A stretch of DNA of 32,000 bases, from NCBI RefSeq assembly GCF_001545095.1, contig NZ_CP013213.1:1770001-1802000 (forward strand), written 5' to 3'. Both the position numbers and the translations under genes were made by a program. The notes under the pieces were generated by a model. The model was not told the DNA's origin and did no database searches. It worked only from the letters and a program-made list of their open reading frames with translations. The DNA comes from Erysipelothrix larvae (lineage in GTDB: Bacteria > Bacillota_I > Bacilli_A > Erysipelotrichales > Erysipelotrichaceae). Below, one piece after another: positions 5,426 through 31,993 of this stretch (position 1 is its first letter; each line of letters opens with the position of its first letter).

Positions 5426-8148
<2,723 letters not shown>

Positions 8149-8223
8149 AAACTTCCCTCCTACCCTCAATATATCACGCATTTTCTTGAATATAGGCTTC
8201 TTCATAAGAAAGTATTTCCAGGT

Positions 8224-8253
8224 AAAAAAACCACTTTCATATTATGAAAGTGG
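8224..8253 (-). terminator. Hairpin plus U-tract at the end of the RpiR gene
   Basis: Arms CCACTTTCATA (8231-8241) and TATGAAAGTGG (8243-8253) are perfectly complementary. On the minus strand they are followed by TTTTTTT (A-run 8224-8230 on the plus strand). The rpiR stop codon (8242-8244) sits at the hairpin tip. Confidence 0.6.
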
Positions 8254-15747: not shown

Positions 15748-16740
15748 TTAATCTTTGTTTCGTTTGATGAGGCGTTGTAATACAACTGCGGTCAGAATTA
15801 ACAGTCCTTTGATCAGGTCGTTTACAAATGCTGGAACACCAAATGATGTCAGGATTGTACTGATTGATTGTAGGATGATTGCACCAAAGAATGTTCCTTG
15901 AACAAATCCTTTACCACCTGACATGGATACACCACCAATTGCGACTGCAGCAATTGCATCGGTTTCCATAGCACGTGCAGCAGTTGCGGTATCAACCGCA
16001 CCCATTTGTGCGATAAAAAGAAACGCCGCTAAACCTGATAACATCCCAGACAATCCGTATACGATAATTTGAATGTTTGAAACTTTAACCCCTGTTAACA
16101 GTGTTGCTTTTGCATTTGAACCCACTGCATAGATGTATCGTCCGAGTTTTGTTTTAGTAAGTAATACCCATACTAAGAATGTAGTGAAGATAAAAATGAG
16201 AACAAGGTAAGGAATTCCAAACAGTTGACCATATCCAATGTATCGAAACAATTGGGTATATACTTCATGTTTTGTGACAAGTGGACCCCCTTGACCCAGT
16301 TGAATGGTTAGGGATCGATAGGCTGCTAGGGTTGCTAGTGAGACAACAAATCCTGCAATACCCAGTTTCCCTACAAAAAAGCCATTAAAAAGTCCTAGGA
16401 TTAATCCAAATGCAAGACAAACAAGGAGCGTTAGCAATACATTTTCTGTGCGATTAAATACTATGACACCAACCGATCCTGCAAATGCAAGCATGGAGCC
16501 AACGGATAAATCTATTTGTCCTATAAGAATGACCAATGTCATCCCTAATGCGAGTACCCCAAGAATCGATGCGGATCGCATCATGATCATCACATTTGAG
16601 AACCTGAGGAAGTTTGGATTTGCAAATCTTCCGACAATGACCAGTGCAATCAGTGAAAATATATAGTTATGGTTTCGTACAATATTCCCCATAAACTCTT
16701 TGATATCGAATAATTCTTTGTCTCCTTTAGTTTTTAACAT
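15748..16740 (-). CDS. Sugar ABC transporter permease (RbsC/branched-chain-type BPD_transp_2 family)
   Basis: About 10-TM protein with RbsC-like segments (GQIDLSVGSMLAFAG, GGVSMSGGKG). The start is set to ATG 16740 (MLKTKGDK), a 14-nt overlap with the ATPase stop. The track start at 16785 lies deep inside the ATPase gene. Confidence 0.8.
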   Translation of the reverse strand: MLKTKGDKELFDIKEFMGNIVRNHNYIFSLIALVIVGRFANPNFLRFSNVMIMMRSASILGVLALGMTLVILIGQIDLSVGSMLAFAGSVGVIVFNRTENVLLTLLVCLAFGLILGLFNGFFVGKLGIAGFVVSLATLAAYRSLTIQLGQGGPLVTKHEVYTQLFRYIGYGQLFGIPYLVLIFIFTTFLVWVLLTKTKLGRYIYAVGSNAKATLLTGVKVSNIQIIVYGLSGMLSGLAAFLFIAQMGAVDTATAARAMETDAIAAVAIGGVSMSGGKGFVQGTFFGAIILQSISTILTSFGVPAFVNDLIKGLLILTAVVLQRLIKRNKD

Positions 16741-18235: not shown

Positions 18236-18253
18236 TGTTATCACCCTTTAGAA

Positions 18254-18287
18254 GAAAGAGGTTAACCAGGATTGATTAACCTCTTTT
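18254..18287 (-). promoter_or_regulatory. Strong intercistronic hairpin between the binding-protein gene and the ATPase gene
   Basis: Perfect 10-bp arms AAGAGGTTAA (18256-18265) / TTAACCTCTT (18276-18285), extendable by 1-2 pairs, with a 10-nt loop. On the minus strand the hairpin is followed by TCTTCTAAAGGG, which is only partly U-rich. Confidence 0.5.
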
Positions 18288-18299
18288 GCACACAATCTG

Positions 18300-19277
18300 T
18301 TAGCTTCCCCAACCTTCAAATTCTGAGTAGTTTGTCTTGTCTACTGCTTTAGTAGGAATGAGGTATTGCGCAGGTACATCTTTTCCGTTAAGATAATCGA
18401 TTGCGATTCGTACTGATTCTACAACCATGTTTGGATTAAATGTATATGTTACAACATCAATGCCTTGATCAGCATAATATTGAATCTTACCTAAGAGTTC
18501 TTTTGGTTCAGAGACTGCAGATACAATCTTAACCTTATGTGTTCCTGTGTAACCTTCAAGTGCTGTTAAGATACCCAATGCAACTTCTGCATCGTGTGTA
18601 AAGATCGCATCCAGTGTTTCAAACTCAGGGGTACCCATGAATTCTTCCATGAATTTTTGTCCGTTTGAACGTTGCCAATCTGTACTCCACTCATTGAGTT
18701 TCTTGAATTTACCATCAATTGTTTCTGCAAATCCTTCGCTACGTTGACGTGGTACAGAGGAGTTGTCACCAAGAAATTCAATATAGTTGATTGATTCAAC
18801 CGATGAATCTTCAAGTTCATTCTTGAAATAGTTATTGAAGTATAGCCCTGTTTGTCTTCCAATTTCGACATTATCACCCATTACTTCTGAGACTTGGTCA
18901 AAGCCATCAAGAAGTCTATCATAAATAACAACAGGAATCTTTGCATCTACAAATGCTTGTGCAGCGGATTTCAACGTGTCATCATGTGGCCATAAGACTA
19001 CAATGTCTGGTGCTTCTGCAACAATTTGAGCAACTTGAGCTGCTTGTTCTGTTGCGTTTGCTGATGTCACAACTTTATAGTCCATGTCGTTTTCTTCAGC
19101 AAGTTTCTTTGTGCCTGTCTGTGCATCGCTCACACTTTGCCCAGTAAATCCGTGTGTTGCATTTGGGGTCATCACAACGATTGATTTCTTACCATCGTTG
19201 GTATCACCTTGACTACCACAAGCTGTTAAGCCTACAGCAACCAATACTATCAATAATACGCTCAATAATCTTTTCAT
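18300..19277 (-). CDS. Sugar ABC transporter substrate-binding lipoprotein (RbsB/Peripla_BP_4-like)
   Basis: 325 aa. The signal peptide carries a lipobox: MKRLLSVLLIVLVAVGLTAC-GSQG. SD GGAGGG lies 4 nt upstream. It sits in an operon with the RbsA/RbsC-type components. Confidence 0.8.
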   Translation of the reverse strand: MKRLLSVLLIVLVAVGLTACGSQGDTNDGKKSIVVMTPNATHGFTGQSVSDAQTGTKKLAEENDMDYKVVTSANATEQAAQVAQIVAEAPDIVVLWPHDDTLKSAAQAFVDAKIPVVIYDRLLDGFDQVSEVMGDNVEIGRQTGLYFNNYFKNELEDSSVESINYIEFLGDNSSVPRQRSEGFAETIDGKFKKLNEWSTDWQRSNGQKFMEEFMGTPEFETLDAIFTHDAEVALGILTALEGYTGTHKVKIVSAVSEPKELLGKIQYYADQGIDVVTYTFNPNMVVESVRIAIDYLNGKDVPAQYLIPTKAVDKTNYSEFEGWGS

Positions 19278-19340
19278 AGGTCCCTCCTTTATTGATCGTG
19301 CTATGGTCTCTATTATGAAATTGATGTCATGCTTAAAACG

Positions 19341-20498
19341 TCATTCCATGTCAATCCAACGTTTTTCCTTGCTACTTTGAAGGCTTGCTTCAACCAATTT
19401 CATTAAGGTATGCCCTGTTTCAAAATCCACATAACTCTGTGAATCGTTATGGCCATCATTTCTGATATCTTCATAGAATTCTGAAATTGAATTCTTAAAG
19501 GCATCAGCCCACCCCACTGCGTGTCCATTTGGCAGTGATATAAAGCGTCTTAAGGATGGGTCAATATATTTTGGATCTGCGTACAATTCTTCATTGCCAG
19601 ACGCTCGATTTCCAATGATCAATCGGTCTGCTCTTTCTTGATGCCACGATAGTGAGTGTTTTGAGCCACTTACAACCAGTTCGACACCATTCTTATAGCC
19701 TCCGGTTACTTGAGATATATCCATTGAAACCTTGATCCCACTTTCCAGTTGGACAAGGATAAAGGCTGCATCTTCATTCACAACATCAACCTCAGTCACT
19801 GTATCACCATATTCTAAGGCAAAGGTTTCACCGGTTTGTTCACGTTTCTTTCGTGTGGGGTAGACAATCATTAAATCTGCAAAGACTTTCACGATTTTCT
19901 CACCATAGACAAATTGAATTAAGTCAAAGAGATGGGTTCCGATATCCGCAACCGATCGCGATGGTCCAACTTTACTTGGATCAAAATGCCAATCATAATC
20001 TGTATCAAACATCAACCAATCTTGTATATACTGTGCTTGCCCTAATAATGGGGTTCCAATCATGCCTGAACTGATGCGATGTTTCATTTCTCGAATCATT
20101 ACATTGCTTCTGTAATTTAAATTGACCGCAGTATAGACTGAGTGTTTGCGTGCAAGCTCTTTAAGTTCGTTTGACTCAAGGGTTGTTAAGGATAAGGGTT
20201 TCTCACAAAATACATTCAACCCTGCTTCAACACATTGTTTTGCCATTGGATAATGAAGGAAGTTAGGGGTACAAATATGGACCACGTCAATACCGTCCAT
20301 GTTCAACATGTCATCAATGCTTGTAAAGTAATGGTCAATGCCATAGGACTCTGCCGCACGTTTTGCACTTTCTCCATTGGGTTCAACTAAAGCAACCACT
20401 TGTGTATTGGGGATACGATGAATTGCTTCTATGTGTTGTTTTCCAATAAAACCAACCCCAACGACTGCTGCTTGTATCTTTTTTGAAATAATAACCAC
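19341..20498 (-). CDS. Gfo/Idh/MocA-family NAD(P)-dependent oxidoreductase
   Basis: 385 aa. The N-terminal Rossmann motif is AAVVGVGFIGKQH and the EKP motif is VFCEKPL. The start codon is uncertain: GTG 20498 is only 1 nt from the SD (see findings). Confidence 0.8.
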   Translation of the reverse strand: MVIISKKIQAAVVGVGFIGKQHIEAIHRIPNTQVVALVEPNGESAKRAAESYGIDHYFTSIDDMLNMDGIDVVHICTPNFLHYPMAKQCVEAGLNVFCEKPLSLTTLESNELKELARKHSVYTAVNLNYRSNVMIREMKHRISSGMIGTPLLGQAQYIQDWLMFDTDYDWHFDPSKVGPSRSVADIGTHLFDLIQFVYGEKIVKVFADLMIVYPTRKKREQTGETFALEYGDTVTEVDVVNEDAAFILVQLESGIKVSMDISQVTGGYKNGVELVVSGSKHSLSWHQERADRLIIGNRASGNEELYADPKYIDPSLRRFISLPNGHAVGWADAFKNSISEFYEDIRNDGHNDSQSYVDFETGHTLMKLVEASLQSSKEKRWIDME

Positions 20499-20507
20499 GC
20501 TCCTTAC

Positions 20508-20521
20508 TGTAATTAATTACC
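20508..20521. promoter_or_regulatory. Candidate LacI-family operator TGTAATTAATTACC
   Basis: 14-mer that is 13/14 palindromic, with a perfect core GTAATTAATTAC at 20509-20520. It lies between the -10 (20549..20544) and the SD (20505..20500) of the oxidoreductase/ABC operon. Related TGTAATT half-sites occur at 20624 and 20636. Confidence 0.45.
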
Positions 20522-20543
20522 TTGTTACACTCTTTTCGCTCAT

Positions 20544-20573
20544 ATTGTAAGCCTTTTCAACCGGAAATGTCAA
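20544..20573 (-). promoter_or_regulatory. Sigma-A-type promoter for the oxidoreductase/ABC operon (TTGACA - 18 nt - TACAAT)
   Basis: On the minus strand the -35 TTGACA is at 20573..20568 and the -10 TACAAT at 20549..20544. This is about 45 nt upstream of the coding start. Confidence 0.55.
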
Positions 20574-20643
20574 TATAATTTATGATAACTTTATAAATTT
20601 GTTCAATTATTGATAGAATAAAATGTAATTTACAGTGTAATTA

Positions 20644-20672
20644 TTGCATACGGTTACATTTACAGTTATAAT
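20644..20672 (+). promoter_or_regulatory. Sigma-A-type promoter for the LacI/TIM-barrel operon (TTGCAT - 17 nt - TATAAT)
   Basis: -35 TTGCAT is at 20644-20649 and -10 TATAAT at 20667-20672, with an exact 17-nt spacer. This is 28 nt upstream of ATG 20700. Confidence 0.55.
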
Positions 20673-20699
20673 TGTATGTAGGAATAGGATGTGATTGTT

Positions 20700-21731
20700 A
20701 TGAAAGAGAAATTAACCATTAAGGATATTGCAGAGTTGGCAGATGTATCGACTGCAACTGTGTCACGGGTTATGAGTGGTAAAGATAAGGTCAAAGAAGA
20801 AACACGAGAGCATGTTCTAAAGATTATTGCTCAACATGGATATGAACTTCAAAAGCGTTCGCAATTATCGGATCAAGAAAGTAAAACAATTCTGGTATGT
20901 GTGACTGAACTTAAAAACCCCTTTAACGTTCCAATATTTGATGGAATTCAAAATTCCGCGAAGAAAAATGGTTATGATGTATTAATCCTACAAACCAAAG
21001 ATATTTATATGGATTTCTCTGATTTTGAATCCGTCTTAAAATCTCAACGCTTTGTTGGGGTAATCTTTGTATCAACCTTAAATCAACATCAACTGAGAGA
21101 TATCACAGATCAATTGAGTCATCGAACTCCGATTGTATTGTGTTCTGAGTTCATCGAAGATTCAAACGTTCCCTATGTTGGAATCAATGACTTAGATGCA
21201 ATGCACAAAGCAACCAATTATCTTTTATCTGTAGGTCGTAAGAACATCTACTTTATTAATTCCCAATTAAATCGCAATTATGCAAGAAAACGTGAACAAG
21301 GATTTAGACTCGCTATGTCGCAAGCAGGACTCAGCATCAATGAAGATTACATTGTACGCTTATCATCCGTAACCCATGCACTTGCTTATGCTGCAACCTT
21401 GCATATACTGGACCAAAACCCACGCCCGGATGCTATTTTATGTGTATCGGATATGTTTGCGATTGGCGCTTTAAAAGCATGTCAAAAAAGAAACCTTCGG
21501 GTTCCTGAAGATGTTGCGATTGTTGGGTTTGATAACATTGAAATTACCACAATGGTTCAACCATCCATCACAACCATTGAACAACCAAGTTACCAAATCG
21601 GATATCAAGCCAGTGAGTTACTGATTGAGAAGATTCATTTCCCAAGTGTATCACCAAAGCAAATTATTCTTGATACCGAGCTGATTATAAGAGATTCAAC
21701 ACCAATAAACATAAATAAGGGAGGAATTTAG
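20700..21731 (+). CDS. LacI-family transcriptional regulator
   Basis: The N-terminal HTH is MKEKLTIKDIAELADVSTATVSRVMSG, followed by a periplasmic-binding-protein-like sugar domain (VGFDNIE). The start is set to ATG 20700, with AGGA 10 nt upstream. GTG 20691 is too close to the SD. Confidence 0.85.
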   Translation: MKEKLTIKDIAELADVSTATVSRVMSGKDKVKEETREHVLKIIAQHGYELQKRSQLSDQESKTILVCVTELKNPFNVPIFDGIQNSAKKNGYDVLILQTKDIYMDFSDFESVLKSQRFVGVIFVSTLNQHQLRDITDQLSHRTPIVLCSEFIEDSNVPYVGINDLDAMHKATNYLLSVGRKNIYFINSQLNRNYARKREQGFRLAMSQAGLSINEDYIVRLSSVTHALAYAATLHILDQNPRPDAILCVSDMFAIGALKACQKRNLRVPEDVAIVGFDNIEITTMVQPSITTIEQPSYQIGYQASELLIEKIHFPSVSPKQIILDTELIIRDSTPININKGGI

Positions 21732-21734
21732 ACG

Positions 21735-22649
21735 ATGAAATTTGGATTGAATACCGCAATACTTGGTCATATGGATTTTGATCAAGTCCTAGAGTTTTGT
21801 CATGGGGTAGGTTACAAAAGCCTAGAGGTTGCTTGTTGGCCTTCTGGAAAGAAAGAACGCCGTTATGCAGGTGTATCGCATATTAATGTTGATGCACTAA
21901 CACCCCATAAGGTTGAAGAAATCCTTCATGCATGTGAAACCCATGATATCGAAATCAGTGCTTTGGCGTATTATCCCAATCCATTGGATGAAAATCTTGA
22001 AGCCCGTGCCTTTAATATTGAACACCTTAAGAAAGTGATTGAAGGTGCAAACAAACTAAATGTGGGCATGGTTACCACATTCATTGGTCGTATGCAAACA
22101 AAAACCCTAGAAGAGAATCTTCTAGAGTTTAAGGCAGTATGGCCTGATATTATTCATTATGCAAAACAACTGAATGTTAAGATTGCGATTGAAAACTGTC
22201 CGATGTTATTTTCAAATGATGAATGGCCTGGAGGTCAAAACATCTTTACCTCCCCTGCAATATGGTGCAAATGTTTTGAGTTAATCCCAGAAGATAACTT
22301 TGGCATTAACTTTGATCCATCACATTTCATCTGGCAGCAGATGGATTACATCAAACCCATCACTGAGTTTAAAGACCGCATCTTCCACATTCATTTTAAA
22401 GACATCAAACTTTATCGCGATCAACTGGATGATTATGGGTGTATGGCAACACCCCTTCACTACATGGCTCCAAAGATTCCAGGTCTTGGTGATGTTGATT
22501 GGGCAAAATATATCTCTGCCCTTCGTGATATCAACTATAAGGGACATGCGTGTGTGGAAGTTGAAGACCGTTCCTTTGAAGACACTACACAAGACATTGA
22601 AGACTCGTGCATCTTAAGTTATCGCTATTTAAGTCAATTTCTGATTTAG
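21735..22649 (+). CDS. Xylose-isomerase-like TIM-barrel protein (sugar phosphate isomerase/epimerase family)
   Basis: 304 aa. AP_endonuc_2/IolE-like pattern: KIAIENCP, FGINFDPSHF, HFKD, CVEVED as likely metal ligands. It starts 3 nt after the LacI stop, with SD AAGGGAGG. Confidence 0.75.
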   Translation: MKFGLNTAILGHMDFDQVLEFCHGVGYKSLEVACWPSGKKERRYAGVSHINVDALTPHKVEEILHACETHDIEISALAYYPNPLDENLEARAFNIEHLKKVIEGANKLNVGMVTTFIGRMQTKTLEENLLEFKAVWPDIIHYAKQLNVKIAIENCPMLFSNDEWPGGQNIFTSPAIWCKCFELIPEDNFGINFDPSHFIWQQMDYIKPITEFKDRIFHIHFKDIKLYRDQLDDYGCMATPLHYMAPKIPGLGDVDWAKYISALRDINYKGHACVEVEDRSFEDTTQDIEDSCILSYRYLSQFLI

Positions 22650-22914: not shown

Positions 22915-24246
22915 TTAATGAGATGCATTAATCCTTCTATAATTTAGGTAAATTGAAGTTGAACAAAGAATTATAATAGTTGCTACCCCAATAATGTTAA
23001 AGTTAGCAGTGAAATTAAAGAAGAACCATGCAGCAGGATGACCTGCATAATCAAAACAAGAAATCAGCGATATGCCTTCTGGTAGTACCGATCCGGATAC
23101 AAGTGCACTTTGAGTAAATATTGGTGCTAAACTAGTAGAAACATAATTACCTAAAATTAGTGCGAACAATCCAAATAAAAAGGTCCTAAAAACATTACCA
23201 TTCATGATTGGTATTACAAACGGAAATATATACATAACCCCAGCTAAGCTTGCGATTGGTAAAAAATGATTTCCTGGAAGAATAACCGAAATAAAGAGAA
23301 TAAAAGGTACTACTAATAATGAACACACTAAATTTGTCGGATGACCAATTACTAACGATGGACTCATACCTATCCAAAGCTCTCGCCCTTTGAATCTTTT
23401 CTCAAGTATGCTTTGGGTTTGTTTCGATATTGGGGCTAATCCTTCAATCAGTAAGCCGGTTATTCGCGGGATTAAAACCATAACCGCAGACATCTGAACC
23501 GACAATTTCAGTATACCTGATAATTCATATTGAGAAATAAATCCTAAAATCGCTCCAATTATTGCTCCTAAGATAATCGGTTCACCAAATACACCAATTT
23601 TGTTTTGCAATGTATCCGAGTCAAAATCTATTTTATTCATAATAGGAATTCTATCAATTACCCAATTAAATACTTCAGCAAGTGGAGCATACAAAGCAGT
23701 GATTGGGAACGCCATTGCCAGACCATCTATATTTGAATAGAACTTGTGAACACGAGGTGTATAGTAATCAGAAAGACAAATAGTTAAAATAAAATTGGAA
23801 ACCGCTCCAAATATACTCCATCCAAAACTACCGGTTGCCACATAAATAATAGACCCAATAAATGCATAGTGCCAATAATTCCAAATATCCATATTCATAG
23901 TCTTTGTCATCTTGAATAAAATCATTATTACATTAACACCAACGCAAATCGGTATCATCAATCCTCCAATGGCAGAACTATAAGCAATTTGAGAAGCAGT
24001 GGGCCACCCCACATCAAGAATAGTTGTTTGCAAGTGGTAAAGCTCTGACATCTTCGCAACTACTGGTCCTAGATTATCCGTAAGCATTCCCGTTACTAGA
24101 CTTAATCCAGCAAAACCAACACCAACTGATAACCCTGACTTAATTGATTTTCCAAATCCCATTCCTATTGCTACACCAATTATCGTGAAAATAATAGGCA
24201 TCATTACACTCGCACCCAGGCTAACAATATAATTTATTACATTCAT
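22915..24246 (-). CDS. PTS galactitol-family EIIC (GatC-type) permease, with no cognate EIIA/EIIB nearby
   Basis: 443 aa, polytopic. It resembles E. coli GatC in several blocks (LGASVMMPIIF, GVGFAGL, NMDIWNYWH, FGEPI, GNVFRT). Its ATG abuts the ADH stop (TAAATG). Confidence 0.8.
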   Translation of the reverse strand: MNVINYIVSLGASVMMPIIFTIIGVAIGMGFGKSIKSGLSVGVGFAGLSLVTGMLTDNLGPVVAKMSELYHLQTTILDVGWPTASQIAYSSAIGGLMIPICVGVNVIMILFKMTKTMNMDIWNYWHYAFIGSIIYVATGSFGWSIFGAVSNFILTICLSDYYTPRVHKFYSNIDGLAMAFPITALYAPLAEVFNWVIDRIPIMNKIDFDSDTLQNKIGVFGEPIILGAIIGAILGFISQYELSGILKLSVQMSAVMVLIPRITGLLIEGLAPISKQTQSILEKRFKGRELWIGMSPSLVIGHPTNLVCSLLVVPFILFISVILPGNHFLPIASLAGVMYIFPFVIPIMNGNVFRTFLFGLFALILGNYVSTSLAPIFTQSALVSGSVLPEGISLISCFDYAGHPAAWFFFNFTANFNIIGVATIIILCSTSIYLNYRRINASH

Positions 24247-25386
24247 TTACTTTTCTCCATCTATTAATGATAAATATATTGATTTAATCAATTGTTGGTT
24301 CATTGGTACATAACTATTTTTGAGTAGTCTTTTTTGGTTATTTACCACCGAAATAGAAAAACTTTCGACATCATTAACCCCAAAGTTATAATCGGAAAGT
24401 TTCCTATTTCTCATTATGGAATTGAGGAGTTTGTATAATTCATCCAAGGATTCATCAAGATTGCAGTCAAACTTTTCTGCAATTGCTTGCTTGAGAGAAG
24501 AAAACTTTCCATCTGGTTTCATTTTATCGTATGCATTTAGAACCCCTTTTAGTACATAAAAATTCGATTCACCATGAGCTATTTTATATTTTGCACCAAG
24601 TGGATAACTCAAAGCATGGATTGGCCCACATCCCCCAGTTTCAAATGCAAATCCTGCATAAGTGCTTGCAAGAATAAAATCTTGCGCCTTTTGTTTGATT
24701 GTAACTTCATAACCGAAGTTTTTTATATCAATAAAACCATTAAGAATCATTTCTATTGCGCGAATACTAAATATTCTACTTAAATCAGTACTGTTATCAG
24801 ACAGGAAAGACTCTGTTGCATGGATAAAGGCATCAATTGAACTCGTTGCGAAAACTCCTTGTGGTAAATTTTCGATAAGTCTTGGAATTAAAATCGCACA
24901 ATCACCATAAATACTTTCATTTGAAATTCCAACTTTTGTTCCCAATCTTGTTCTATTGATTGCTGCAATGCTTGTTACTTCACTTCCAGTACCACATGTT
25001 GTTGGGATAAGTATCAGTTGAATATTTCTTTCAATAATAGAATCTGATTCAAAAATCCAATCTATATTTTCTTGCGTTGAACCATATGCAATTGACAATA
25101 TTTTTGCGATATCGAGACACGACCCTCCACCTATTGCAATAATACGTTTTATGATGATGTGATTGATATCATTTAGCATGGATTCAATCATTATGTCAGT
25201 AGGCTCTTGATTTCCATATCGTTCAACGACAACAACATTCACTTCAGCACTGAATAAATCTTTAAATTTTTTATAAATGACATCTGTTACGACTACCATA
25301 TCACCTTCGCCAAATGGAAATTCATCAAGATAATCATCTAGATCGTTAAACTGATATAGTTTTGTACGCATTTTAATTAATTCCAT
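24247..25386 (-). CDS. Iron-containing (group III) alcohol dehydrogenase family protein
   Basis: 379 aa. Motifs are GGGSCLDIAK, PTTCGTGSE, a metal-site Asp/His (SSIDAFIHA) and IHALSYPLG...AHGESN. SD AAGAGG lies 6 nt upstream. It overlaps the TK C-subunit end by 14 nt. Confidence 0.8.
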   Translation of the reverse strand: MELIKMRTKLYQFNDLDDYLDEFPFGEGDMVVVTDVIYKKFKDLFSAEVNVVVVERYGNQEPTDIMIESMLNDINHIIIKRIIAIGGGSCLDIAKILSIAYGSTQENIDWIFESDSIIERNIQLILIPTTCGTGSEVTSIAAINRTRLGTKVGISNESIYGDCAILIPRLIENLPQGVFATSSIDAFIHATESFLSDNSTDLSRIFSIRAIEMILNGFIDIKNFGYEVTIKQKAQDFILASTYAGFAFETGGCGPIHALSYPLGAKYKIAHGESNFYVLKGVLNAYDKMKPDGKFSSLKQAIAEKFDCNLDESLDELYKLLNSIMRNRKLSDYNFGVNDVESFSISVVNNQKRLLKNSYVPMNQQLIKSIYLSLIDGEK

Positions 25387-26356
25387 ATTTGGCCTCTTTT
25401 CTCTTTATTACTTTTATTGCACTTTCATAGATTGATTGTGAATCAATATGATATTCTTTCGCAAGGAAATCAAGAGTTCCTACTTGACCAAACCTATCCT
25501 GAACACCAATCAGTTCCATTGGTACAGGGAAGTTTTTCACGACTATTTCAGATACAGCAGCTCCTAGTCCAGTTGTAATATTATGATTTTCACACGTAAC
25601 AATTGCTCCGGTTTCTTGTGCAGCTTTAACAATTGCCTCTTCATCAATTGGTTTCCAAGTAAACATATCTAAAATACGAACCGATATACCTTCTTCTGTT
25701 AATTTTTTTGCAGCTTGAATTGCTTGTGATACACAAAAGCCGCTAGCAATTAATGTTACGTCAGTTCCGTCTTGAATTAGACTTGCTTTTCCAAGAACTA
25801 AATCATCTGCATTCTCATAAATTTTGGTACAGGTTTTTCTAACTAATCGCATGTATGAAACACCATAATTGTCATGCAATTGAGGTAGAATTATCTTAAG
25901 TGATTCTAGATCAGCTGGCTCAACTACTGTTACCTCGGGAATACATCTCATAATACCCATATCCTCAAATGGCATATGTGTACCACCGTTCGCTTGAGCG
26001 GTTATTCCTGGGTCTGAACCAATTAGTTTTACGTTTAGTTTCGCATATGCTGCAGACACAAATACTTGATCAGCTACTCTTCTTGACATAAATGGACCGA
26101 ATGTATGTACAAATGGAATAAATCCTACAGAACTCAATCCAGCTGCAACCCCAACCATGTTAGCTTCTTGAATTCCACAATCAAAAGTTCGCTTTGGAAA
26201 TAACCCTTGAAATGGTTTTGTTCCCATAGCACTCATTAAATCTGCATCTAGTAGAACCACGTTCTTATCCTTTTCAGCCAATGATATTAAGGTATCGCAA
26301 AACTCCTCTCTCATCTCTTTTACTTCATTTCGAATTGGTTTCGCTATTATCGGCAT
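25373..26356 (-). CDS. Transketolase, C-terminal (pyrimidine-binding plus C-terminal domain) subunit
   Basis: 327 aa. Motifs are FDCGIQEANMVGVAAGLS and FVHTFGPFMS. The start shares one nucleotide with the upstream stop (TAATG at 26358..26354). Confidence 0.85.
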   Translation of the reverse strand: MPIIAKPIRNEVKEMREEFCDTLISLAEKDKNVVLLDADLMSAMGTKPFQGLFPKRTFDCGIQEANMVGVAAGLSSVGFIPFVHTFGPFMSRRVADQVFVSAAYAKLNVKLIGSDPGITAQANGGTHMPFEDMGIMRCIPEVTVVEPADLESLKIILPQLHDNYGVSYMRLVRKTCTKIYENADDLVLGKASLIQDGTDVTLIASGFCVSQAIQAAKKLTEEGISVRILDMFTWKPIDEEAIVKAAQETGAIVTCENHNITTGLGAAVSEIVVKNFPVPMELIGVQDRFGQVGTLDFLAKEYHIDSQSIYESAIKVIKRKEAKYGIN

Positions 26357-27198
26357 TATTTAATCTCCCCCTTCCATTTGTCAATACTTTTTAGAAAGTG
26401 ATAATAGTCCTCAGAAGATACATTCATTGAATGGCTCTTAATTGTTCCTTCTATTTCGTCCCATCCTTTTCCTTTTACAGTATCTAGCACAATTACTGAT
26501 GGTCTTCCTTGCGATTGGTTTTTGGCAACTGAGATTGCGCTCTCAATAGCATATAAATCATGACCGTCAATTGTCTGACTAAACCACCCAAACTCGCCGA
26601 ATTTCGCCCCAATGTCTCCTAACGAATTAATATCATCAGTAAACCCATCAAGTTGAATTTTGTTATTATCAATAAATGCAATTAAGTTATTAAGCTTATT
26701 TTGCGCAGCAAAGAGAGCCATTTCCCAAACTTGACCTTCTTGACATTCACCATCACCAAGAATTAAATACACATAACTATCAAAGCCTCTTAATTTTATA
26801 CCTAAAGCAATCCCCGCAGCACTTGAAGCTCCTTGTCCTAGTGAACCAGTCGTCATATCAATTCCTGGAGTTTTTGTTCGATCACAATGACTTGGAAGAA
26901 TCGTATTAGGTTTGTTAAGTGTTTTAAGGATATCAAGCGGAAAATAACCTTTTAATCCTAATGTCGCATACAATGCTGGGCCACAATGTCCTTTTGACAA
27001 TACGAGCCTATCTCTAGTAACGTCTATGGGATTAAGTGGATTAATTTTCATCACACCATTATATAGAACGGCTAAACAATCTGCGATTGACAATGCTCCT
27101 CCCACATGTCCCACTCCAAATGATGAAACTGCGAATAAGGTCCACTTCCTAATATCTAATGCAAACTCTTTTGTATTATTTGAATTTACTAGAGGCAT
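26356..27198 (-). CDS. Transketolase, N-terminal (thiamine diphosphate-binding) subunit
   Basis: 280 aa. Motifs are GHVGGALSIADCLAVLY, GSLGQG and the ThDP motif GDGECQEGQVWEMALFAAQNKLNNLIAFIDNN. SD GGAGGTGG lies inside the ALDH 3' end, with a 10-nt overlap. Confidence 0.85.
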   Translation of the reverse strand: MPLVNSNNTKEFALDIRKWTLFAVSSFGVGHVGGALSIADCLAVLYNGVMKINPLNPIDVTRDRLVLSKGHCGPALYATLGLKGYFPLDILKTLNKPNTILPSHCDRTKTPGIDMTTGSLGQGASSAAGIALGIKLRGFDSYVYLILGDGECQEGQVWEMALFAAQNKLNNLIAFIDNNKIQLDGFTDDINSLGDIGAKFGEFGWFSQTIDGHDLYAIESAISVAKNQSQGRPSVIVLDTVKGKGWDEIEGTIKSHSMNVSSEDYYHFLKSIDKWKGEIK

Positions 27199-28640
27199 GA
27201 ACTTCCACCTCCAATATTGATAAATTTGTATTCTAGATATTCCCTAATCCCATAAATTCCATTTTCTCTTCCAAATCCTGAGTATTTAATTCCACCAAAT
27301 GGTGTTTCATTTGTTGAAACAACAACTTCATTTATTGCTACTAATCCGAATTCTAGGTCAATCGCAAATTTTTTGATTCTTTCTAAATTCTCAGTAAATA
27401 CATAAGATGCTAACCCATACTCAGTTTCATTCGCTTTTCCTAATACTTCCTCGTCCGTATCAAATGTAATAACACTAAATACTGGGCCAAATATTTCTTC
27501 AAAGTAAATATCCATTGTACTGTTAACTTCATATAATATAGTCATCGGATAAATACTATCTGGGATAACATTGTCTTTCGGGATGTCTCGATACATTATG
27601 GCACCCTTACTCACTGCATCTTCAACTAACTTATTAATGCGATTGTTAGATTGGATACTAATTAACGGACCTACTTCAGTATCCTTTTTCATAGGATTCC
27701 CTATATTTAGTCCTGAAATTTCCTCTTTTAGTAGCTCAAGGAATAAATCTTTGACATCTTTCTGTATAAATATACGATTTGGGGAAGTACATACTTGTCC
27801 CATATTTCGTTTTTTTGCGGACACAAGTAGTTTAACTGCTTTACTTAAATTTGCATCACTAAAAATAATAAATGGAGCATTTCCACCCAATTCTAAGGAA
27901 AGTTTCTTTAGGGTAGTTGCACTGTCTTCAAATAGTTTTTTTCCTATTTTAGTCGATCCAGTGAACGATATTTTCCGGACGATAGGACTTTTCATAAACT
28001 CACTGCTAATCATTGATGAGCTACCTGTTACCAAGTTTACACACCCATCTGGAAATGGCAGCTCTGCAATTATTTTTACAAGCTCTGTAGAAATTAATGG
28101 TGTCATAGATGACGGTTTTAGCACTATCGTGCATCCTGCAGCTAGTGCGGGTGCTAGTTTACGTGTCACTAAGTTCAAAGGGAAATTCCACGGTGTTATT
28201 AAGCCAACGACTCCGATAGGTTCTTGTACAACAAGTTGAGTCGTATTTGAGTGAGAAGGAATAATCTCGCTATTTATCCGCTTAATTTCCTCAGCATTCC
28301 AAAGAAAATTCTCAATGGATTGATCTACTTCACTTATTGCGTCAACTATTTTTTTACCACTTTCAAGGCAGATTATTTCTGCTAATAAATCTCGTTTTTC
28401 AGACATTTTTTCTGCAATACTTTGAAGTAGTTTCGCTCGTTCATAAGTGTTTGTTTTCTTCCATTGTCCTAGTGCACGTTGTGCAGAGGTAATACTTTGT
28501 TGAACCTGTATCTCATTTACTTGAGCAACATCAGCGATTTTTTCTTGATTATATGGATTGAAAAGCGGTGCAGTTCCCTGTGTTGATCGCCATTTCCCAT
28601 CAATGAAACACTGAGTCGTTTCATATTTATATTTTCCCAT
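27189..28640 (-). CDS. NAD(P)-dependent aldehyde dehydrogenase
   Basis: 483 aa. Motifs are PWNFP, FTGSTKIG, LELGGNAP (catalytic Glu), GQVCTSPNR (catalytic Cys), EEIFGPV and PFGGIKYSGFGRE. SD is GAGGAG. Confidence 0.85.
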   Translation of the reverse strand: MGKYKYETTQCFIDGKWRSTQGTAPLFNPYNQEKIADVAQVNEIQVQQSITSAQRALGQWKKTNTYERAKLLQSIAEKMSEKRDLLAEIICLESGKKIVDAISEVDQSIENFLWNAEEIKRINSEIIPSHSNTTQLVVQEPIGVVGLITPWNFPLNLVTRKLAPALAAGCTIVLKPSSMTPLISTELVKIIAELPFPDGCVNLVTGSSSMISSEFMKSPIVRKISFTGSTKIGKKLFEDSATTLKKLSLELGGNAPFIIFSDANLSKAVKLLVSAKKRNMGQVCTSPNRIFIQKDVKDLFLELLKEEISGLNIGNPMKKDTEVGPLISIQSNNRINKLVEDAVSKGAIMYRDIPKDNVIPDSIYPMTILYEVNSTMDIYFEEIFGPVFSVITFDTDEEVLGKANETEYGLASYVFTENLERIKKFAIDLEFGLVAINEVVVSTNETPFGGIKYSGFGRENGIYGIREYLEYKFINIGGGSSCL

Positions 28641-29202
28641 AATTCAAATTCTCCTCATTCATAATTAAACTGTATAAATATTTCATTTCATTAGGTGATA
28701 GTTGTTTTTCACTACTCATTAATTCCAACTCATCTACAAGATCATTTTCGGATATAATTGCAATTTGACCTTGATGATATGGTTCTGAAACTAAACTATT
28801 TATTACAAATACATTGAAAGAATACTCAACGTCAATTTTTCCTACTAATTTTAAGAACTGGTTTCGACAAGCTCTCACGAGTTCGTTATTCATTTGTTTT
28901 ATTTTGCTAATTTTCTTTCCGTTTACTATAATGAAACCAATTCCATTTTTATGGATTAATAAAATGTAATTTCCTATTTCCCTCTGAGATGATTTCCCAA
29001 AAACCAAAAAGTGCTTTCCAAGTTGGTTATTAAGGTGTCTTGTAGATTCAATTTTGTTTTTCCTTATCGAAAAGTAGTATTCTAGGTAGCCATTGAAGAT
29101 TACTCGTAGAACACTTATTCGATATATTTTGTATTGATATACTAAGTCAACCAGAAAATAAGTAAAGGTTATTACTATGAAACCAAGTAGTAAACCATCC
29201 AT
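28627..29202 (-). CDS. Membrane-anchored hypothetical protein with a NERD-like (nuclease-related domain) layout
   Basis: 191 aa with an N-terminal TM helix LLLGFIVITFTYFLVDLV. The core HFLVFGKSSQREIGNYILLIHKNGIGFIIVNGKKI and the C-terminal tail (..ISENDLVDELELMSSEKQLSPNEMKYLYSLI) resemble the NERD pattern as I remember it. SD GAGAGGA lies 8 nt upstream. It overlaps the ALDH start by 14 nt. Confidence 0.4.
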   Translation of the reverse strand: MDGLLLGFIVITFTYFLVDLVYQYKIYRISVLRVIFNGYLEYYFSIRKNKIESTRHLNNQLGKHFLVFGKSSQREIGNYILLIHKNGIGFIIVNGKKISKIKQMNNELVRACRNQFLKLVGKIDVEYSFNVFVINSLVSEPYHQGQIAIISENDLVDELELMSSEKQLSPNEMKYLYSLIMNEENLNYGKI

Positions 29203-29223: not shown

Positions 29224-29250
29224 AAAGCAGCTTATTCGGCTGCTTTTTTT
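29224..29250. terminator. Hairpin directly after the aldolase stop codon; it looks like a better terminator on the plus strand than on the gene strand
   Basis: 8-bp arms AAAGCAGC (29224-29231) / GCTGCTTT (29239-29246) with a 7-nt loop. On the plus strand the T-run extends to 29251. On the minus strand it is followed only by AAATTTAGAG. Confidence 0.5.
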
Positions 29251-30134
29251 TATTCAACTTCTTTAGTAGTAGTTTGGTCAAATACATAGCGTCCTGATGA
29301 ACCAATCATTTTCATAAAGCTTTGAATATATGTTTTCATAGCTTGTTCACCAACAATCTGGAAATCCATGTAATCAATATTTGGATTTTCAAGAGCAGCA
29401 TCAACCATTGCTTTTCTTCCTATCCTGAACAGATCGGTACAGACATTGATTTTATTGATTCCTAAAGATACTACCTTTTTTATATTGTCTTCCCCTGCTC
29501 CTGATCCTCCATGGAGTACTAGTGGAATCTTTAGTGTTTGTTTTAACACTTTGAGACGTTCGAAATCCAACTTTGGAATAATACCTTTAGGATAATTACC
29601 ATGAGCAGTTCCAATAGCTACGGCTAAACAATCTATATTAGTTCTTTGGACATAATCGAGAGCCTGATCAGGATTTGTATATAGATCAGCTTTCGCATCA
29701 TCTCCATCTTGTGCTATACCCACATGTCCAAGTTCTGCTTCTACTGAAAGTCCCTTTTCATGAGCCATAATCGTAATTAACCTTGTACGCTTAATGTTTT
29801 CTTCAAATTCTAGGGCTGAAGCATCAATCATTACACTTGAGAATCCAGCTTTCATAACACGATTTATATCCTCATATAACTGACCGTGATCAAGGTTTAG
29901 TGCAACTGGGACATGAGTTTGCTCAGCAAGAGCTTTAATCATCGGAACCATTATTTCTGGACTTGCATGAGCTTTCATTTGACGTGGTGAAATATTAACG
30001 ATTACTGGAGCATTTTCTGCTGTTGCTGCCCCAATTATAGCTCTTGCCTGTTCCATATTTGTACAATTAATTGCGACAACAGCATAATAGTTTTCGTGTG
30101 CATGTTGTAACATGCCTTTCATTGAAACATACAT
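29250..30134 (-). CDS. Class II ketose-bisphosphate aldolase (fructose/tagatose-1,6-bisphosphate aldolase family)
   Basis: 294 aa. Motifs are VALNLDHG, AELGHVG, IGTAHG and LVLHGGSG (zinc and phosphate sites of PF01116-type aldolases). Confidence 0.85.
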   Translation of the reverse strand: MYVSMKGMLQHAHENYYAVVAINCTNMEQARAIIGAATAENAPVIVNISPRQMKAHASPEIMVPMIKALAEQTHVPVALNLDHGQLYEDINRVMKAGFSSVMIDASALEFEENIKRTRLITIMAHEKGLSVEAELGHVGIAQDGDDAKADLYTNPDQALDYVQRTNIDCLAVAIGTAHGNYPKGIIPKLDFERLKVLKQTLKIPLVLHGGSGAGEDNIKKVVSLGINKINVCTDLFRIGRKAMVDAALENPNIDYMDFQIVGEQAMKTYIQSFMKMIGSSGRYVFDQTTTKEVE

Positions 30135-30153: not shown

Positions 30154-31206
30154 CTAATCCAGTGCTGCTTCTTCGGTCAGAGGTTTCTTAATAATCGCAT
30201 AAATAACACCTGTAATAATTGTACCGATTCCTAAACATGTTAAGAAAACAAGTGGGTTATTCATCATTGGAACAACAAATATTCCACCATGTAAAGCCGG
30301 AGATTCAACCCCCCACATTAATGCTAAACCACCTGCTACCGCAGAACCTGGAATTGTTGAACACCAAACTCGAATTGGGTCATTTAGATAAAATGGGATA
30401 GCTCCTTCGGTGATATAACACATACTTAAAGGAACTGCTACTTTCGCATTTTCTATATCTGCTTGAGTAAATTTCTTTCGAGCTAACAATACAGCAAGTG
30501 CCATTCCTAAAGGAGGTGCCATACCAGCTGCCATTTTTACAGACGTTGGTCCATAAACTCCATCAGCATTCAATCCATTTGCAAATGATGCTGCAGTTTT
30601 CGTAAACGGTCCTCCGAAGTCAATCCCCCAACATGTTCCCATTACTGCTCCAAGAATGAATTTAGATCCTCCTTGTAATGATGCTAGCCAATTAACCATT
30701 GCGTTCATTACAAATGCGATAGGCTCACCAATAATGAATTGGAAGATACATCCAACCGCTAAGGTAACAGTTACAGGAATAACAAGAATCGGCATAATAC
30801 CCGTTGCCCAATTTGGTACCTTTAGTTTTTTGAACGCCAATACCATATAACCAACAAGGAATCCACCAATCAACCCTCCAACGAATCCAGCGTTAATTTC
30901 ATTTGATAGATAACCAATTGCTAAGGCAGGACCAATTGCAGGTCTATCACCAATTGAATATGCAATTGCTGCTGTTAAAATAGGAACTGAGAAGAAGAAC
31001 GCTGATGCACCAATCTGATTAATTAAATAAGCAAATGTACCAGGATTATTCGCAACATCATAGCCACCAATTGCTTTTGCAATGGCCATGATAATTCCAC
31101 CGGCTACAATAACAGGGATCATATACGATGTTCCAGTTAAAAATGATGCTTTTATTTTTTCTCCTTGACTGACTTTTTTGTTATTTTTTCTAGTGATAGT
31201 TGCCAT
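30154..31206 (-). CDS. PTS fructose-family EIIC permease
   Basis: 350 aa, polytopic. The FruA-type EIIC pattern includes FLTGTSYMIPVIVAGGI and ITEGAIPF. The start shares 1 nt with the EIIB stop. Confidence 0.85.
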   Translation of the reverse strand: MATITRKNNKKVSQGEKIKASFLTGTSYMIPVIVAGGIIMAIAKAIGGYDVANNPGTFAYLINQIGASAFFFSVPILTAAIAYSIGDRPAIGPALAIGYLSNEINAGFVGGLIGGFLVGYMVLAFKKLKVPNWATGIMPILVIPVTVTLAVGCIFQFIIGEPIAFVMNAMVNWLASLQGGSKFILGAVMGTCWGIDFGGPFTKTAASFANGLNADGVYGPTSVKMAAGMAPPLGMALAVLLARKKFTQADIENAKVAVPLSMCYITEGAIPFYLNDPIRVWCSTIPGSAVAGGLALMWGVESPALHGGIFVVPMMNNPLVFLTCLGIGTIITGVIYAIIKKPLTEEAALD

Positions 31207-31514
31207 TATGAAATTGCCTCCAATAATTCATCTACAAGACCTAATCCGTCTTTTACAGCTTCTGATACTCTACATTCAAGCACAGGAATATCATCAAATC
31301 TCTCAGGATTTCTAATTTTCACATCACTTGCAATGATAATACCAGCTGCTCTAGAAATGTCCTCTGAAGTAATTACGTTTTCAGGTCCTTGAGCTCCTTG
31401 AGTTTCAATCTTAATCTCCACATTACGTTTTTTTGCTGCTTTTTGTAAATTAGCTGCCGCCATGTAGGTGTGTGCAATACCTACTGGGCAGCTTGTGATT
31501 GCTAAAATAAACAT
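31206..31514 (-). CDS. PTS fructose-family EIIB
   Basis: 102 aa. ILAITSCPVGIAHTYMAA is the phospho-Cys loop of the PTS_IIB_fruc type. Confidence 0.85.
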   Translation of the reverse strand: MFILAITSCPVGIAHTYMAAANLQKAAKKRNVEIKIETQGAQGPENVITSEDISRAAGIIIASDVKIRNPERFDDIPVLECRVSEAVKDGLGLVDELLEAIS

Positions 31515-31525
31515 ATTTTTTCTCC

Positions 31526-31993
31526 TTATCTTTCTTTATCAATACTCTGAAATATACTTATTATTTTTTCTTTCGAAGAAGCATTAACAATACCGGTTCT
31601 AAACTCATCATTCATCAAATTATATGACAAAGTAGAAAGCAGTTTTAGAAAATCACCCGTCTCATTTGCAGGTACCGCTAGCATTATAACAATACTAACA
31701 GGATCCCCATCAAGTGATTCCCATTCAACATTATTTTTTAGTTTTACTATTGTAAAACATGTTTCGTTAACGCCATTACTTCGCGCATGGGGAATTGCGA
31801 TTCCCATTCCAATTCCTGTAGAATACTCACTTTCTCTTTTAAAAACATCATCTTCAAACACTTGTTTGTCATTAAGTAGCCCTTCATTTGATAAAACTTC
31901 AACAATTGAAGATATTACATCTTTTTTTGTATCCCCCCCAAAATCAAATTGAATCAAATTTGGTGTTTTAATTAATATTTCTGCTAAGCTCAT
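31526..31993 (-). CDS. PTS EIIA, fructose/mannitol (PTS_EIIA_2) type
   Basis: 155 aa. The phospho-His region is GMGIAIPHARS. It is the first visible gene of the block, and its promoter lies outside the window. Confidence 0.8.
   Translation of the reverse strand: MSLAEILIKTPNLIQFDFGGDTKKDVISSIVEVLSNEGLLNDKQVFEDDVFKRESEYSTGIGMGIAIPHARSNGVNETCFTIVKLKNNVEWESLDGDPVSIVIMLAVPANETGDFLKLLSTLSYNLMNDEFRTGIVNASSKEKIISIFQSIDKER

Follow-up and report, generated by a model that had tools for sequence, protein, structure and literature searches.

A six-gene transketolase unit in Erysipelothrix larvae

The window analyzed here, a stretch of 32,000 nucleotides from the Erysipelothrix larvae genome, carries on its minus strand six closely packed open reading frames (ORFs, 22915-29202) arranged around a split transketolase (TK). 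Read in the direction of transcription, the unit begins with a membrane-anchored protein of 191 aa (28627-29202; locus tag AOC36_08285), followed by an NAD(P)-dependent aldehyde dehydrogenase (ALDH) of the succinate-semialdehyde dehydrogenase (SSADH) type (483 aa, 27189-28640; PF00171, 509 bits), the N-terminal TK subunit with the thiamine diphosphate (ThDP)/PP domain (280 aa, 26356-27198; PF00456, 169 bits), the C-terminal TK subunit with the Pyr and C domains (327 aa, 25373-26356; Transket_pyr and Transketolase_C), an iron-dependent alcohol dehydrogenase (Fe-ADH) of the 4-hydroxybutyrate dehydrogenase (4HBDH) subfamily (379 aa, 24247-25386; Fe-ADH and ADH_Fe_C; AOC36_08265) and, as last gene, a phosphotransferase system (PTS) EIIC of the galactitol (Gat) family (443 aa, 22915-24246; PF03611, 257 bits; TIGR00827, 397 bits, under the cutoff of 542). 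Pfam assigns five of the six ORFs and gives no match for the 191-aa protein; neither a kinase nor an isomerase was found among the operon genes in the Pfam scan. Neighboring genes overlap by 14 nt (28627-28640), 10 nt (27189-27198) and 14 nt (25373-25386), the two TK genes share one nucleotide of a TAATG at 26356, and the EIIC gene follows with zero spacing (24246/24247). An initial annotation of this DNA had placed the six ORFs and their five junctions at exactly the coordinates of the ORF listing, and the motifs it named (LELGGNAP, GQVCTSPNR, GDG...IDNN, GGGS and PTTCGTGSE) are all present in the translations.

Contigs of relatives were located through homologues of the Fe-ADH and the TK. 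Four metagenomic contigs of relatives share the gene order of the unit. L001 covers the 3' part of the locus, in the same order and with the same tight spacing at identities of 38-84%, the Gat-family EIIC being the most similar at 84%, and the order aldolase, hypothetical protein, ALDH, N-terminal TK subunit, C-terminal TK subunit, (Fe-ADH), Gat-family EIIC is common to L001, L082 and L088. Recurrence of order and spacing is far beyond chance; the six ORFs are a conserved, tightly coupled unit, as had been proposed, and the assignments of ALDH and Fe-ADH bear out the earlier view that TK is flanked by one enzyme that oxidizes and one that reduces aldehydes. The extent of the unit needs correction: the six genes are conserved together, but in the relatives they form the 3' part of a larger PTS locus. 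In L088 and L082-L084 the whole locus is visible, beginning with a divergent Fe-ADH, then a PRD/Mga/EIIA regulator, EIIA, EIIB and EIIC, after which come the aldolase, the small protein, ALDH, both TK subunits, Fe-ADH and the Gat-family EIIC. The in-operon Fe-ADH of L082 is a 50-aa remnant (L082:10917-11069), as it is in L083 and L084, and a divergent 396-aa YqhD-like Fe-ADH lies upstream; because the in-operon gene is so reduced in these loci, the reductive branch seems dispensable.

When genomes were scanned with the Fe-ADH as seed, only 4hbD-like genes at 36-44% identity were recovered, and tblastn with the other operon proteins found TK homologues in seven of those loci. Another recurring grouping of ALDH, Fe-ADH and TK is seen in six contigs labelled Blautia, Ruminococcus or Prevotella (L016, L017, L018, L024, L031 and L033). 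These are 4hbD-like loci with an ALDH about 36% identical to that of the window and a split TK at 34% identity, in which the search pattern did not find the substrate loop described below.

The transketolase carries a non-canonical substrate loop

The catalytic apparatus of the TK is conserved. Alignment with the split TK of C. hydrogenoformans (6yak) shows the His residues retained in the N-terminal subunit, along with its ThDP motif GDG...N, which reads GDGECQEG...IDNN; the C-terminal subunit, aligned to 6yak/6yaj, retains GGTH127. The initial annotation had taken both halves to be intact, which holds for the catalytic residues but not for the substrate loop of the C-terminal half. This loop, residues 113-132, reads GSDPGITAQANGGTHMPFED; side by side, the compared segments are ATHAGLTVGEDGASHQ in the split TK of C. 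hydrogenoformans, GSHCGVSIGEDGPSQM in human TK and GSDPGITAQANGGTHM in the window. The canonical H…GEDG loop thus becomes D…xxNG. Alignment to 6yaj and human TK puts D115 in place of the phosphate-binding His and N123 in place of an Asp, whereas R16 and R173, the equivalents of the phosphate-binding arginines, are kept. We take the His position to be human H416/E. coli H461, which binds phosphate, and the Asp to be human D424/E. coli D469, which binds the 2-OH of the acceptor. An E. coli TK engineered for better activity on 5-ketogluconate carries R358I/H461S/R520Q and is thus also altered at that His (PMC12016104).

The loop DPG[IV]Txx(x)NGGTHMPFED, where canonical enzymes have H.G...GEDG..HQ, is invariant in the 120 closest homologues (58-100% identical). 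It is also found in 81 of 82 non-redundant family loci, the remaining one, L165, being unreadable and giving no match. Identity to the canonical split TK 6yaj is about 41%, the family forms a branch of its own in a neighbor-joining tree with canonical split TKs as outgroups, and a metagenome scan yields more than 555 relatives. The enzyme belongs to a distinct, previously unrecognized and apparently uncharacterized TK family. The non-canonical loop is the most informative feature of the cluster: it departs from canonical TKs at two positions of defined function, and does so throughout the family, which upholds the earlier view that this is not a canonical housekeeping TK.

Both aldehyde enzymes resemble enzymes that act on acid semialdehydes

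The Fe-ADH finds its top match in the PDB with the 4-hydroxybutyrate dehydrogenase of C. viride (30sm, 300 bits), the next best match scoring 93 bits and the lactaldehyde reductase FucO about 65 bits. The characterized enzyme Cvir-Hbd2 is a 4-hydroxybutyrate dehydrogenase of high selectivity with metal ligands D181/H185/H252/H266 and, in addition, Y256, N270 and the carboxylate-binding R348 (PMC13495136). In the HMMER alignment D185, H189, H257, Y261, H271, N275 and R353 of the window enzyme align with this catalytic and ligand set; at the NAD site N34 and Y36 are replaced by T34 and V36, and overall identity is about 41%. Scores against NCBIfam models are low, 103 bits for 4-hydroxybutyrate dehydrogenase (cutoff 500) and, as weak top match, 130 bits for the sulfoacetaldehyde reductase SarD (cutoff 700). 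Within the Fe-ADHs the protein falls into the 4-hydroxybutyrate dehydrogenase subfamily (cd14860).

The ALDH is nearest to SSADHs. TIGR01780 (SSADH) is its best NCBIfam family with 477 bits, under the cutoff of 646. Its top PDB matches are SSADHs, including E. coli GabD (3jz4, 383 bits), AldA-type and lactaldehyde dehydrogenases score below them, and the SafD model gives 301 bits against the window enzymes (cutoff 700). The ALDH shares the motifs VTRK and KRNMGQVC with SSADHs, and the third position, a Ser, reads G in GRENGIYG. In human SSADH the carboxylate-binding residues are presumably R213, R334 and S498, the first two of which we match to the arginines of VTRK and KRNMGQVC. Searched for as ALDH motifs, VTRK/KRN.GQ.C were found only in four ALDHs of the E. 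larvae type. Like the aldolase described below and the Gat-family EIIC, both dehydrogenases score under the equivalog cutoffs of NCBIfam.

With the carboxylate-binding arginines retained in Fe-ADH and ALDH, a C4 (or C3) acid semialdehyde is the more likely substrate of the two enzymes. Glycolaldehyde and lactaldehyde, whose handling by AldA/FucO the initial annotation had drawn on as a parallel, are unlikely candidates, because both aldehyde enzymes keep these arginines, the Fe-ADH being of the 4HBDH type and the ALDH SSADH-like.

Genomic company of the transketolase family

In the 82 non-redundant family loci we called ORFs, clustered the neighbors and annotated recurrent clusters; neighbor counts refer to the 53 loci of at least 8 kb. 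Zinc-dependent alcohol dehydrogenases (Zn-ADHs) and 4HBDH-type Fe-ADHs occur in 19 of these each and ALDHs in 10, an AbfD-like dehydratase together with a CoA transferase in five, and a type II glyceraldehyde-3-phosphate dehydrogenase (GAPDH) together with phosphoglycerate kinase (PGK) in 10-11. Recurrence with dehydrogenases is seen in 25 of the 53, and 40 hold at least one of Zn-ADH, Fe-ADH, ALDH, AbfD/CoA transferase, GAPDH/PGK or a malate or iol gene.

The TK tree has two main clades. The window enzyme lies in clade A, a "dehydrogenase" clade, and not in the clade with iol and GAPDH genes. Its sister group (L085-L087) has a GntR(FCD) regulator followed by the two TK subunits, Zn-ADH, Fe-ADH and the Gat-family EIIC, with no EIIA/EIIB nearby. 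GntR/FCD regulators typically sense organic acids, and their presence here counts for an acid substrate. Other clade A loci from gut Clostridia, a group that includes C. symbiosum and C. transplantifaecale, combine TK with a Zn-ADH, an SSF transporter, a second Zn-ADH and an Fe-ADH under GntR or sigma-54 regulators; the Fe-ADHs of the Clostridial loci are 63% identical to the 4-hydroxybutyrate dehydrogenase of C. viride. Five clade A loci add an AbfD-like dehydratase, a 4-hydroxybutyrate-type CoA transferase, a crotonase and a 3-hydroxyacyl-CoA dehydrogenase, enzymes that convert 4-hydroxybutyrate-type acids to butyrate.

Clade B has a different company. In L164 (3225-16772), L136 (6796-20564), L124 (6827-17064) and L130 (69-8225) one operon unites an ABC transporter, type II GAPDH (420 bits, cutoff 185), PGK and both TK subunits with IolD (982 bits, cutoff 715), IolE (439, cutoff 290) and IolG (489, cutoff 355), whereas IolB scores 108 bits, under its cutoff of 205. 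These operons further hold a nickel-dependent malate racemase (612, cutoff 500) or a tartrate/D-malate dehydrogenase (517, cutoff 470), and often a malic-enzyme-like gene. No iolC, iolJ or iolA was found in the flanks of the four loci, and these may encode an inositol pathway of a transketolase type with D-malate as its end. L115 joins the set of TK, GAPDH, PGK, malate racemase and malic enzyme to Thermotoga-type IolG, IolM-like, IolN and IolO genes. Termite-gut contigs (L144, L146, L147, L157, L158 and L162; for example L162:10988-11734 and L144:7450-8205) show the order glycyl-tRNA synthetase, N-terminal TK subunit, C-terminal TK subunit, LarE, LarB; LarE and LarB build the nickel-pincer cofactor of malate racemase.

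Directly upstream of GAPDH-PGK-TK in L136 (3672-6308) lie an FAD-linked oxidase and an Fe-S/CCG protein resembling GlcD/GlcF, which from their sequence may be a D-2-hydroxyacid (D-malate or glycolate) dehydrogenase.

The loop was also considered alone as proof of a non-housekeeping role. This use of it was set aside, being weakened by the gap, pgk and glyS neighbors in metagenome loci, an objection that is eased because the same loci also hold iol, malate-racemase and LarB/LarE genes.

Upstream PTS and aldolase genes, the hairpin and the 191-aa protein

The initial annotation had regarded the Gat-family permease as lacking an EIIA/EIIB partner. Both genes are in fact present, about 7 kb upstream on the same strand, and are fructose (Fru)-typed. 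The EIIA gene (31526-31993, minus strand), with its start codon 7 nt from the window end, is of Fru/Mtl type (PF00359, 135 bits; TIGR00848 fruA, 119 bits, over the cutoff of 103.5) and occupies the same position in L082 and L088. It is followed on the minus strand by an EIIB of Fru subtype (31206-31514; PF02302, 72 bits; TIGR00829, 104.9 bits, over 76.85), a fructose-family EIIC (30154-31206; TIGR01427, 276 bits, over 157.55) and a class II ketose-phosphate aldolase (29250-30134; PF01116, 310 bits). The best NCBIfam match of the aldolase is TIGR01859 (277 bits, under 343), the cbbA subfamily scoring 257.5 bits (over 215.6). It is 79% identical to its L001 homologue, and its relatives in the PDB include the YdjI aldolase 6ofu. 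By analogy to IolJ it is a candidate for the cleavage of a 1-phospho-ketose acid into dihydroxyacetone phosphate (DHAP) and an acid semialdehyde.

The 47 nt that separate the aldolase gene from the 191-aa gene contain a G+C-rich hairpin (29224-29246, minus strand; RNAfold energy -11.9 kcal/mol). The terminator scan calls it on the plus strand only (9 pairs, then a T run), the minus strand then having only TTTAAATTT. Hairpins are found at the same junction in L001 (829-851), L082 (7085-7114) and L088 (about 7040-7122), with a T7 following in L088. The element could be a terminator, a partial terminator or an attenuator that splits the locus into two transcription units. Despite the hairpin, the PTS/aldolase half and the six-gene half travel together.

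That the 191-aa ORF next to the hairpin is a real gene is shown by its homologues, which occupy the corresponding place in L001, L082 and L088. About 10 relatives were found among 1.8 billion cluster representatives. In its AlphaFold2 model (pLDDT 78) a transmembrane helix at the N-terminus is combined with an alpha/beta domain, and only E41, Y42, L57, G62 and G87 are invariant in the family. The earlier label "NERD-like" (PF08378) is not supported: four family members gave no Pfam match at E<=10, Foldseek of the model against the PDB gave nothing at E<=1e-3, restriction-endonuclease-like folds appearing only at TM 0.25-0.3, and there is no conserved nuclease motif of the PD-(D/E)XK kind.

A possible route for keto sugar acids

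What would such a set of enzymes do? The cluster is most likely a variant of transketolase-based catabolism for a keto sugar acid. From gene identities, synteny, the TK loop, the carboxylate-binding residues and the family associations we infer a substrate class, an acceptor, a direction of flux and a coupling to PTS and aldolase, as follows. The substrate would be a sugar acid with a terminal ketol (HOCH2-CO-CHOH-), a 5-keto-(deoxy)hexonate or a ketohexuronate, with 2-deoxy-5-keto-D-gluconate, 5-ketogluconate and fructuronate/tagaturonate as candidates. The split TK would transfer the C2 ketol unit to an acceptor, probably glyceraldehyde-3-phosphate, which would become xylulose-5-phosphate, and would set free an aldehyde that bears a carboxylate tail, most likely a succinate-, malate- or tartrate-type C4 semialdehyde. 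The SSADH-like ALDH would oxidize this aldehyde to a dicarboxylate with gain of NAD(P)H; alternatively, the 4HBDH-like Fe-ADH would reduce it to an omega-hydroxy acid and consume NADH. The redox-valve logic of the initial annotation, in which the aldehyde is oxidized or reduced, is kept here, but for an acid semialdehyde and not for a neutral aldehyde. The Gat-family EIIC could import the substrate or export the product. More speculatively, the adjacent EIIA/B/C and class II aldolase may provide a parallel or feeding branch in which the ketol hydroxyl is phosphorylated by the PTS with no kinase and the 1-phospho-ketose acid is split, IolJ-like, into DHAP and the acid semialdehyde. That TK splits a 5-keto sugar acid into a C2 unit and a C4 acid semialdehyde, subsequently oxidized or reduced, is in our estimate about an even bet.

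For clade B the proposed chemistry can be drawn more closely. IolG, IolE, IolD and IolB make 2-deoxy-5-keto-D-gluconate, whose ketol end would, on stereochemical grounds, have the D-threo configuration required of TK donors. TK cleavage would leave (R)-3-hydroxy-4-oxobutanoate, that is D-glyceraldehyde-3-phosphate with a carboxylate for the phosphate ester, and its oxidation would give D-malate. Such cleavage would explain the absent iolC/J/A, the GAPDH/PGK pair (oxidation with gain of ATP) and the D-malate enzymes. We therefore put forward, tentatively and at somewhat less than even confidence, that the TK family serves an unrecognized, widespread and kinase-free breakdown of 5-keto sugar acids. 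One form of it would be a myo-inositol pathway that runs through TK, in which glyceraldehyde-3-phosphate is converted to xylulose-5-phosphate, type II GAPDH/PGK yield D-malate and ATP, and malate racemase or D-malate dehydrogenase leads into central metabolism; with ALDH and the 4HBDH-like reductase in place of GAPDH/PGK, the E. larvae operon would be an offshoot linked to the PTS.

Several points weigh against this proposal. It is not evident how the Asp that replaces the phosphate-binding His would bind a carboxylate, and the SSADH and 4HBDH family scores are well under the equivalog cutoffs. The synteny of the four relatives may reflect shared ancestry, as they are probably close kin. The link to inositol is evidence at the level of the family, from the other clade and at 53-57% identity, and the TK beside glycyl-tRNA synthetase in termite-gut loci looks housekeeping. 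The conserved hairpin stands between the aldolase/PTS half and the six genes, and a functional coupling of the two halves is a prediction. Finally, neither a Zn-ADH nor iolG/E/D/B belongs to the E. larvae operon, the neighboring Gfo/Idh/MocA oxidoreductase scoring 111 bits against the IolG cutoff of 355 and the TIM-barrel protein 46 against the IolE cutoff of 290, so that a ready-made keto acid would need to be supplied from outside the cell.

A model with succinate semialdehyde as the exact product, from a 2,3-dideoxy-5-keto-hexonate donor, was prompted by the AbfD/CoA-transferase neighbors and is retained as no more than a sub-case, since we know of no natural source of the donor.

Among other explanations, TK might cleave a neutral ketose or polyol (erythrulose or a deoxy-ketose), with glycolaldehyde or lactaldehyde handled in the manner of AldA/FucO. 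The absence of a kinase from the unit, the missing phosphate-binding His, which suits a non-phosphorylated donor, and the usual transport of polyols by the Gat family are all in keeping with this, and polyol dehydrogenation is a possible role of the TK-adjacent Zn-ADHs in the sister clade, whose best NCBIfam matches are threonine dehydrogenase, IolM and idonate dehydrogenase, all under cutoff. We consider it unlikely, given an Fe-ADH that scores 300 bits with 4-hydroxybutyrate dehydrogenase and about 65 with FucO and keeps the carboxylate-binding Arg, an ALDH nearest to SSADHs with both arginines and above the AldA-type and lactaldehyde dehydrogenases, and a family tied to AbfD/CoA-transferase, malate racemase and D-malate/tartrate dehydrogenase genes. 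It is quite improbable that the split TK is an ordinary pentose-phosphate enzyme or a second copy which came into a sugar operon by chance, beside an unrelated succinate-semialdehyde/4-hydroxybutyrate pair of ALDH and Fe-ADH. Its ThDP-binding and catalytic His residues are all intact and some family members adjoin gap, pgk or glyS; yet the loop is altered family-wide at two functionally defined positions, the 10- and 14-nt overlaps with the ALDH and Fe-ADH genes are conserved in L001, dehydrogenases accompany TK in 25 of the 53 large loci, and TK is found within iol operons that have no iolC/J/A.

A sulfosugar route would be either a variant of the sulfoglycolytic transketolase (sulfo-TK) pathway or a hybrid with the sulfoglycolytic Embden-Meyerhof-Parnas variant sulfo-EMP2, in which the PTS phosphorylates sulfofructose, a SqiA-like aldolase and/or a SqwGH-like TK cleaves it and the sulfonated aldehyde is reduced or oxidized. 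Sulfonate and carboxylate tails are alike, sulfolactaldehyde dehydrogenases are GabD-like, and the weak top NCBIfam match of the Fe-ADH is SarD. Sulfo-TK has a split TK with a PF00465 reductase, and sulfo-EMP2 a PF01116 aldolase (PMC9594981). We regard this route as very improbable: by Pfam, the sulfoquinovosidase YihQ, the FucI-like isomerase SqvD, SqvB, the RpiB-like isomerase SqwI and the TauE exporter are not among the 10 operon genes or 10 other ORFs of the window, YihQ, SqvD and SqwI are not in L082/L088, SarD and SafD score 130 and 301 bits against cutoffs of 700, and inositol and malate genes accompany the family. There is scarcely any likelihood of a Listeria-type PTS operon for pentitols or hexitols, where the Gat EIIC imports and phosphorylates a polyol and TK links the ketose phosphate to the pentose-phosphate pathway. 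The Gat-family EIIC does adjoin TK, and EIIA, EIIB and a PRD regulator belong to the locus of the relatives, but E. larvae-type loci have no polyol-phosphate dehydrogenase, ribulose-5-phosphate epimerase or ribose-5-phosphate isomerase, the ALDH and Fe-ADH would be unexplained, and the TK is without the phosphate-binding His.

Comparison with known systems

In the literature, where our coverage of subscription journals was thin, we found no description of this gene set or of a transketolase variant of the inositol pathway, and none on E. larvae gave phenotype data. No fitting published pathway was found, and the gene content, as the initial annotation had stated, matches none of the sulfo-TK, apiose and Listeria pentitol sets.

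A close parallel is sulfo-TK of Clostridium sp. MSTE9 (SqwGH with the Fe-ADH SqwF), in which a split TK removes C2 units from a sugar with an anionic, non-metabolisable tail (PMC9594981). As in sulfo-TK, no kinase acts on the TK substrate, and an anionic aldehyde would be reduced by a PF00465 alcohol dehydrogenase or, as in some sulfo-TK variants, oxidized. Unlike sulfo-TK, the window lacks YihQ, SqvD, SqvB and SqwI, the proposed tail is a carboxylate and not a sulfonate, and the Fe-ADH is of the 4HBDH type. By its description SqwGH is a close homologue of the pentose-phosphate TK, whereas the window family has an altered loop.

With the canonical end of inositol breakdown (IolC, IolJ, IolA) the proposed route shares the likely substrate class, the ketol acid 2-deoxy-5-keto-D-gluconate, and an acid semialdehyde as product. 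A 2026 study links TIGR01859 to aldolase activity on 2-deoxy-5-keto-D-gluconate phosphate (DKGP), its inositol-to-butyrate fermentation using the aldolase route (PMC13311982); likewise, the window has a PF01116 aldolase with TIGR01859 as best NCBIfam match. It differs in having no IolC or IolA, TK replacing or accompanying the aldolase, and by analogy the window PTS could stand in for the IolC kinase. In the tartaric-acid route proposed for grapevine and Gluconobacter, TK converts 5-keto-D-gluconate to tartaric semialdehyde, which passes to an SSADH-like dehydrogenase (PMC12016104). Cleavage of a 5-keto-aldonate by TK and oxidation of a C4 acid semialdehyde by an SSADH-type enzyme would be common to both. 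That route is biosynthetic or engineered, its natural TK unidentified and the wild-type E. coli TK needing R358I/H461S/R520Q for better activity, whereas here a natural TK family altered at the His position occurs in catabolic operons.

D-apiose catabolism, as reportedly described by Carter et al. in 2018, has a split apulose-4-phosphate transketolase (AptA/AptB) in a catabolic cluster; the pathway is said to need an isomerase and an apulose kinase and to yield DHAP, not a free aldehyde. Compared by description, a split, substrate-specialized TK in a catabolic cluster is the shared feature, and what sets the window apart is that kinase and isomerase are absent and ALDH and Fe-ADH present. The E. 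coli lactaldehyde enzymes AldA and FucO likewise oxidize or reduce one aldehyde through an ALDH or an Fe-ADH according to redox state; the enzymes here fall instead in the SSADH and 4HBDH subfamilies. Unlike the Gat-PTS pentitol operon of Listeria, the locus has Fru-typed EIIA and EIIB and no polyol-phosphate dehydrogenase, Rpe or Rpi.

To our knowledge transketolase-based catabolism is known for few substrates, chiefly sulfoquinovose and apiose. The proposed route, if true, would add a substrate class, and the D…xxNG signature of the loop would allow hundreds of genes annotated as "transketolase" to be re-annotated. It would give a reason for the inositol operons of many anaerobes that have no iolC/J/A, and a source of D-malate, hence a physiological role, for the widespread nickel-dependent malate racemases, a role we did not find stated in the literature. 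For the conversion of 5-ketogluconate to tartaric semialdehyde, on which tartaric-acid biotechnology now uses an engineered E. coli TK, a natural enzyme would become available, and the E. larvae operon would point to cross-feeding on oxidized sugar acids in the insect gut.

Other gene clusters in the window

Beside the operon, at 15748-22649, lies a separate sugar-oxidation cluster. It comprises a ribose-type ABC transporter, a Gfo/Idh/MocA oxidoreductase (best matches levoglucosan dehydrogenase, 148 bits, and IolG, 111 bits), a regulator of the LacI type and a TIM-barrel protein weakly similar to IolE/IolO; when clustered loosely by blast, its genes fall together with IolG, ABC and LacI genes from TK loci. 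A second Gat-family EIIC (PF03611, 313 bits) is found downstream of a PRD/Mga/EIIA_2 regulator on the minus strand (550-1815 and 2094-4019), with no EIIB before the window edge. The minus-strand genes at 5426-9063, encoding a GH1 6-phospho-beta-glucosidase, a Lac/Cel-type PTS EIIC and an RpiR regulator, are an ordinary beta-glucoside PTS unit.

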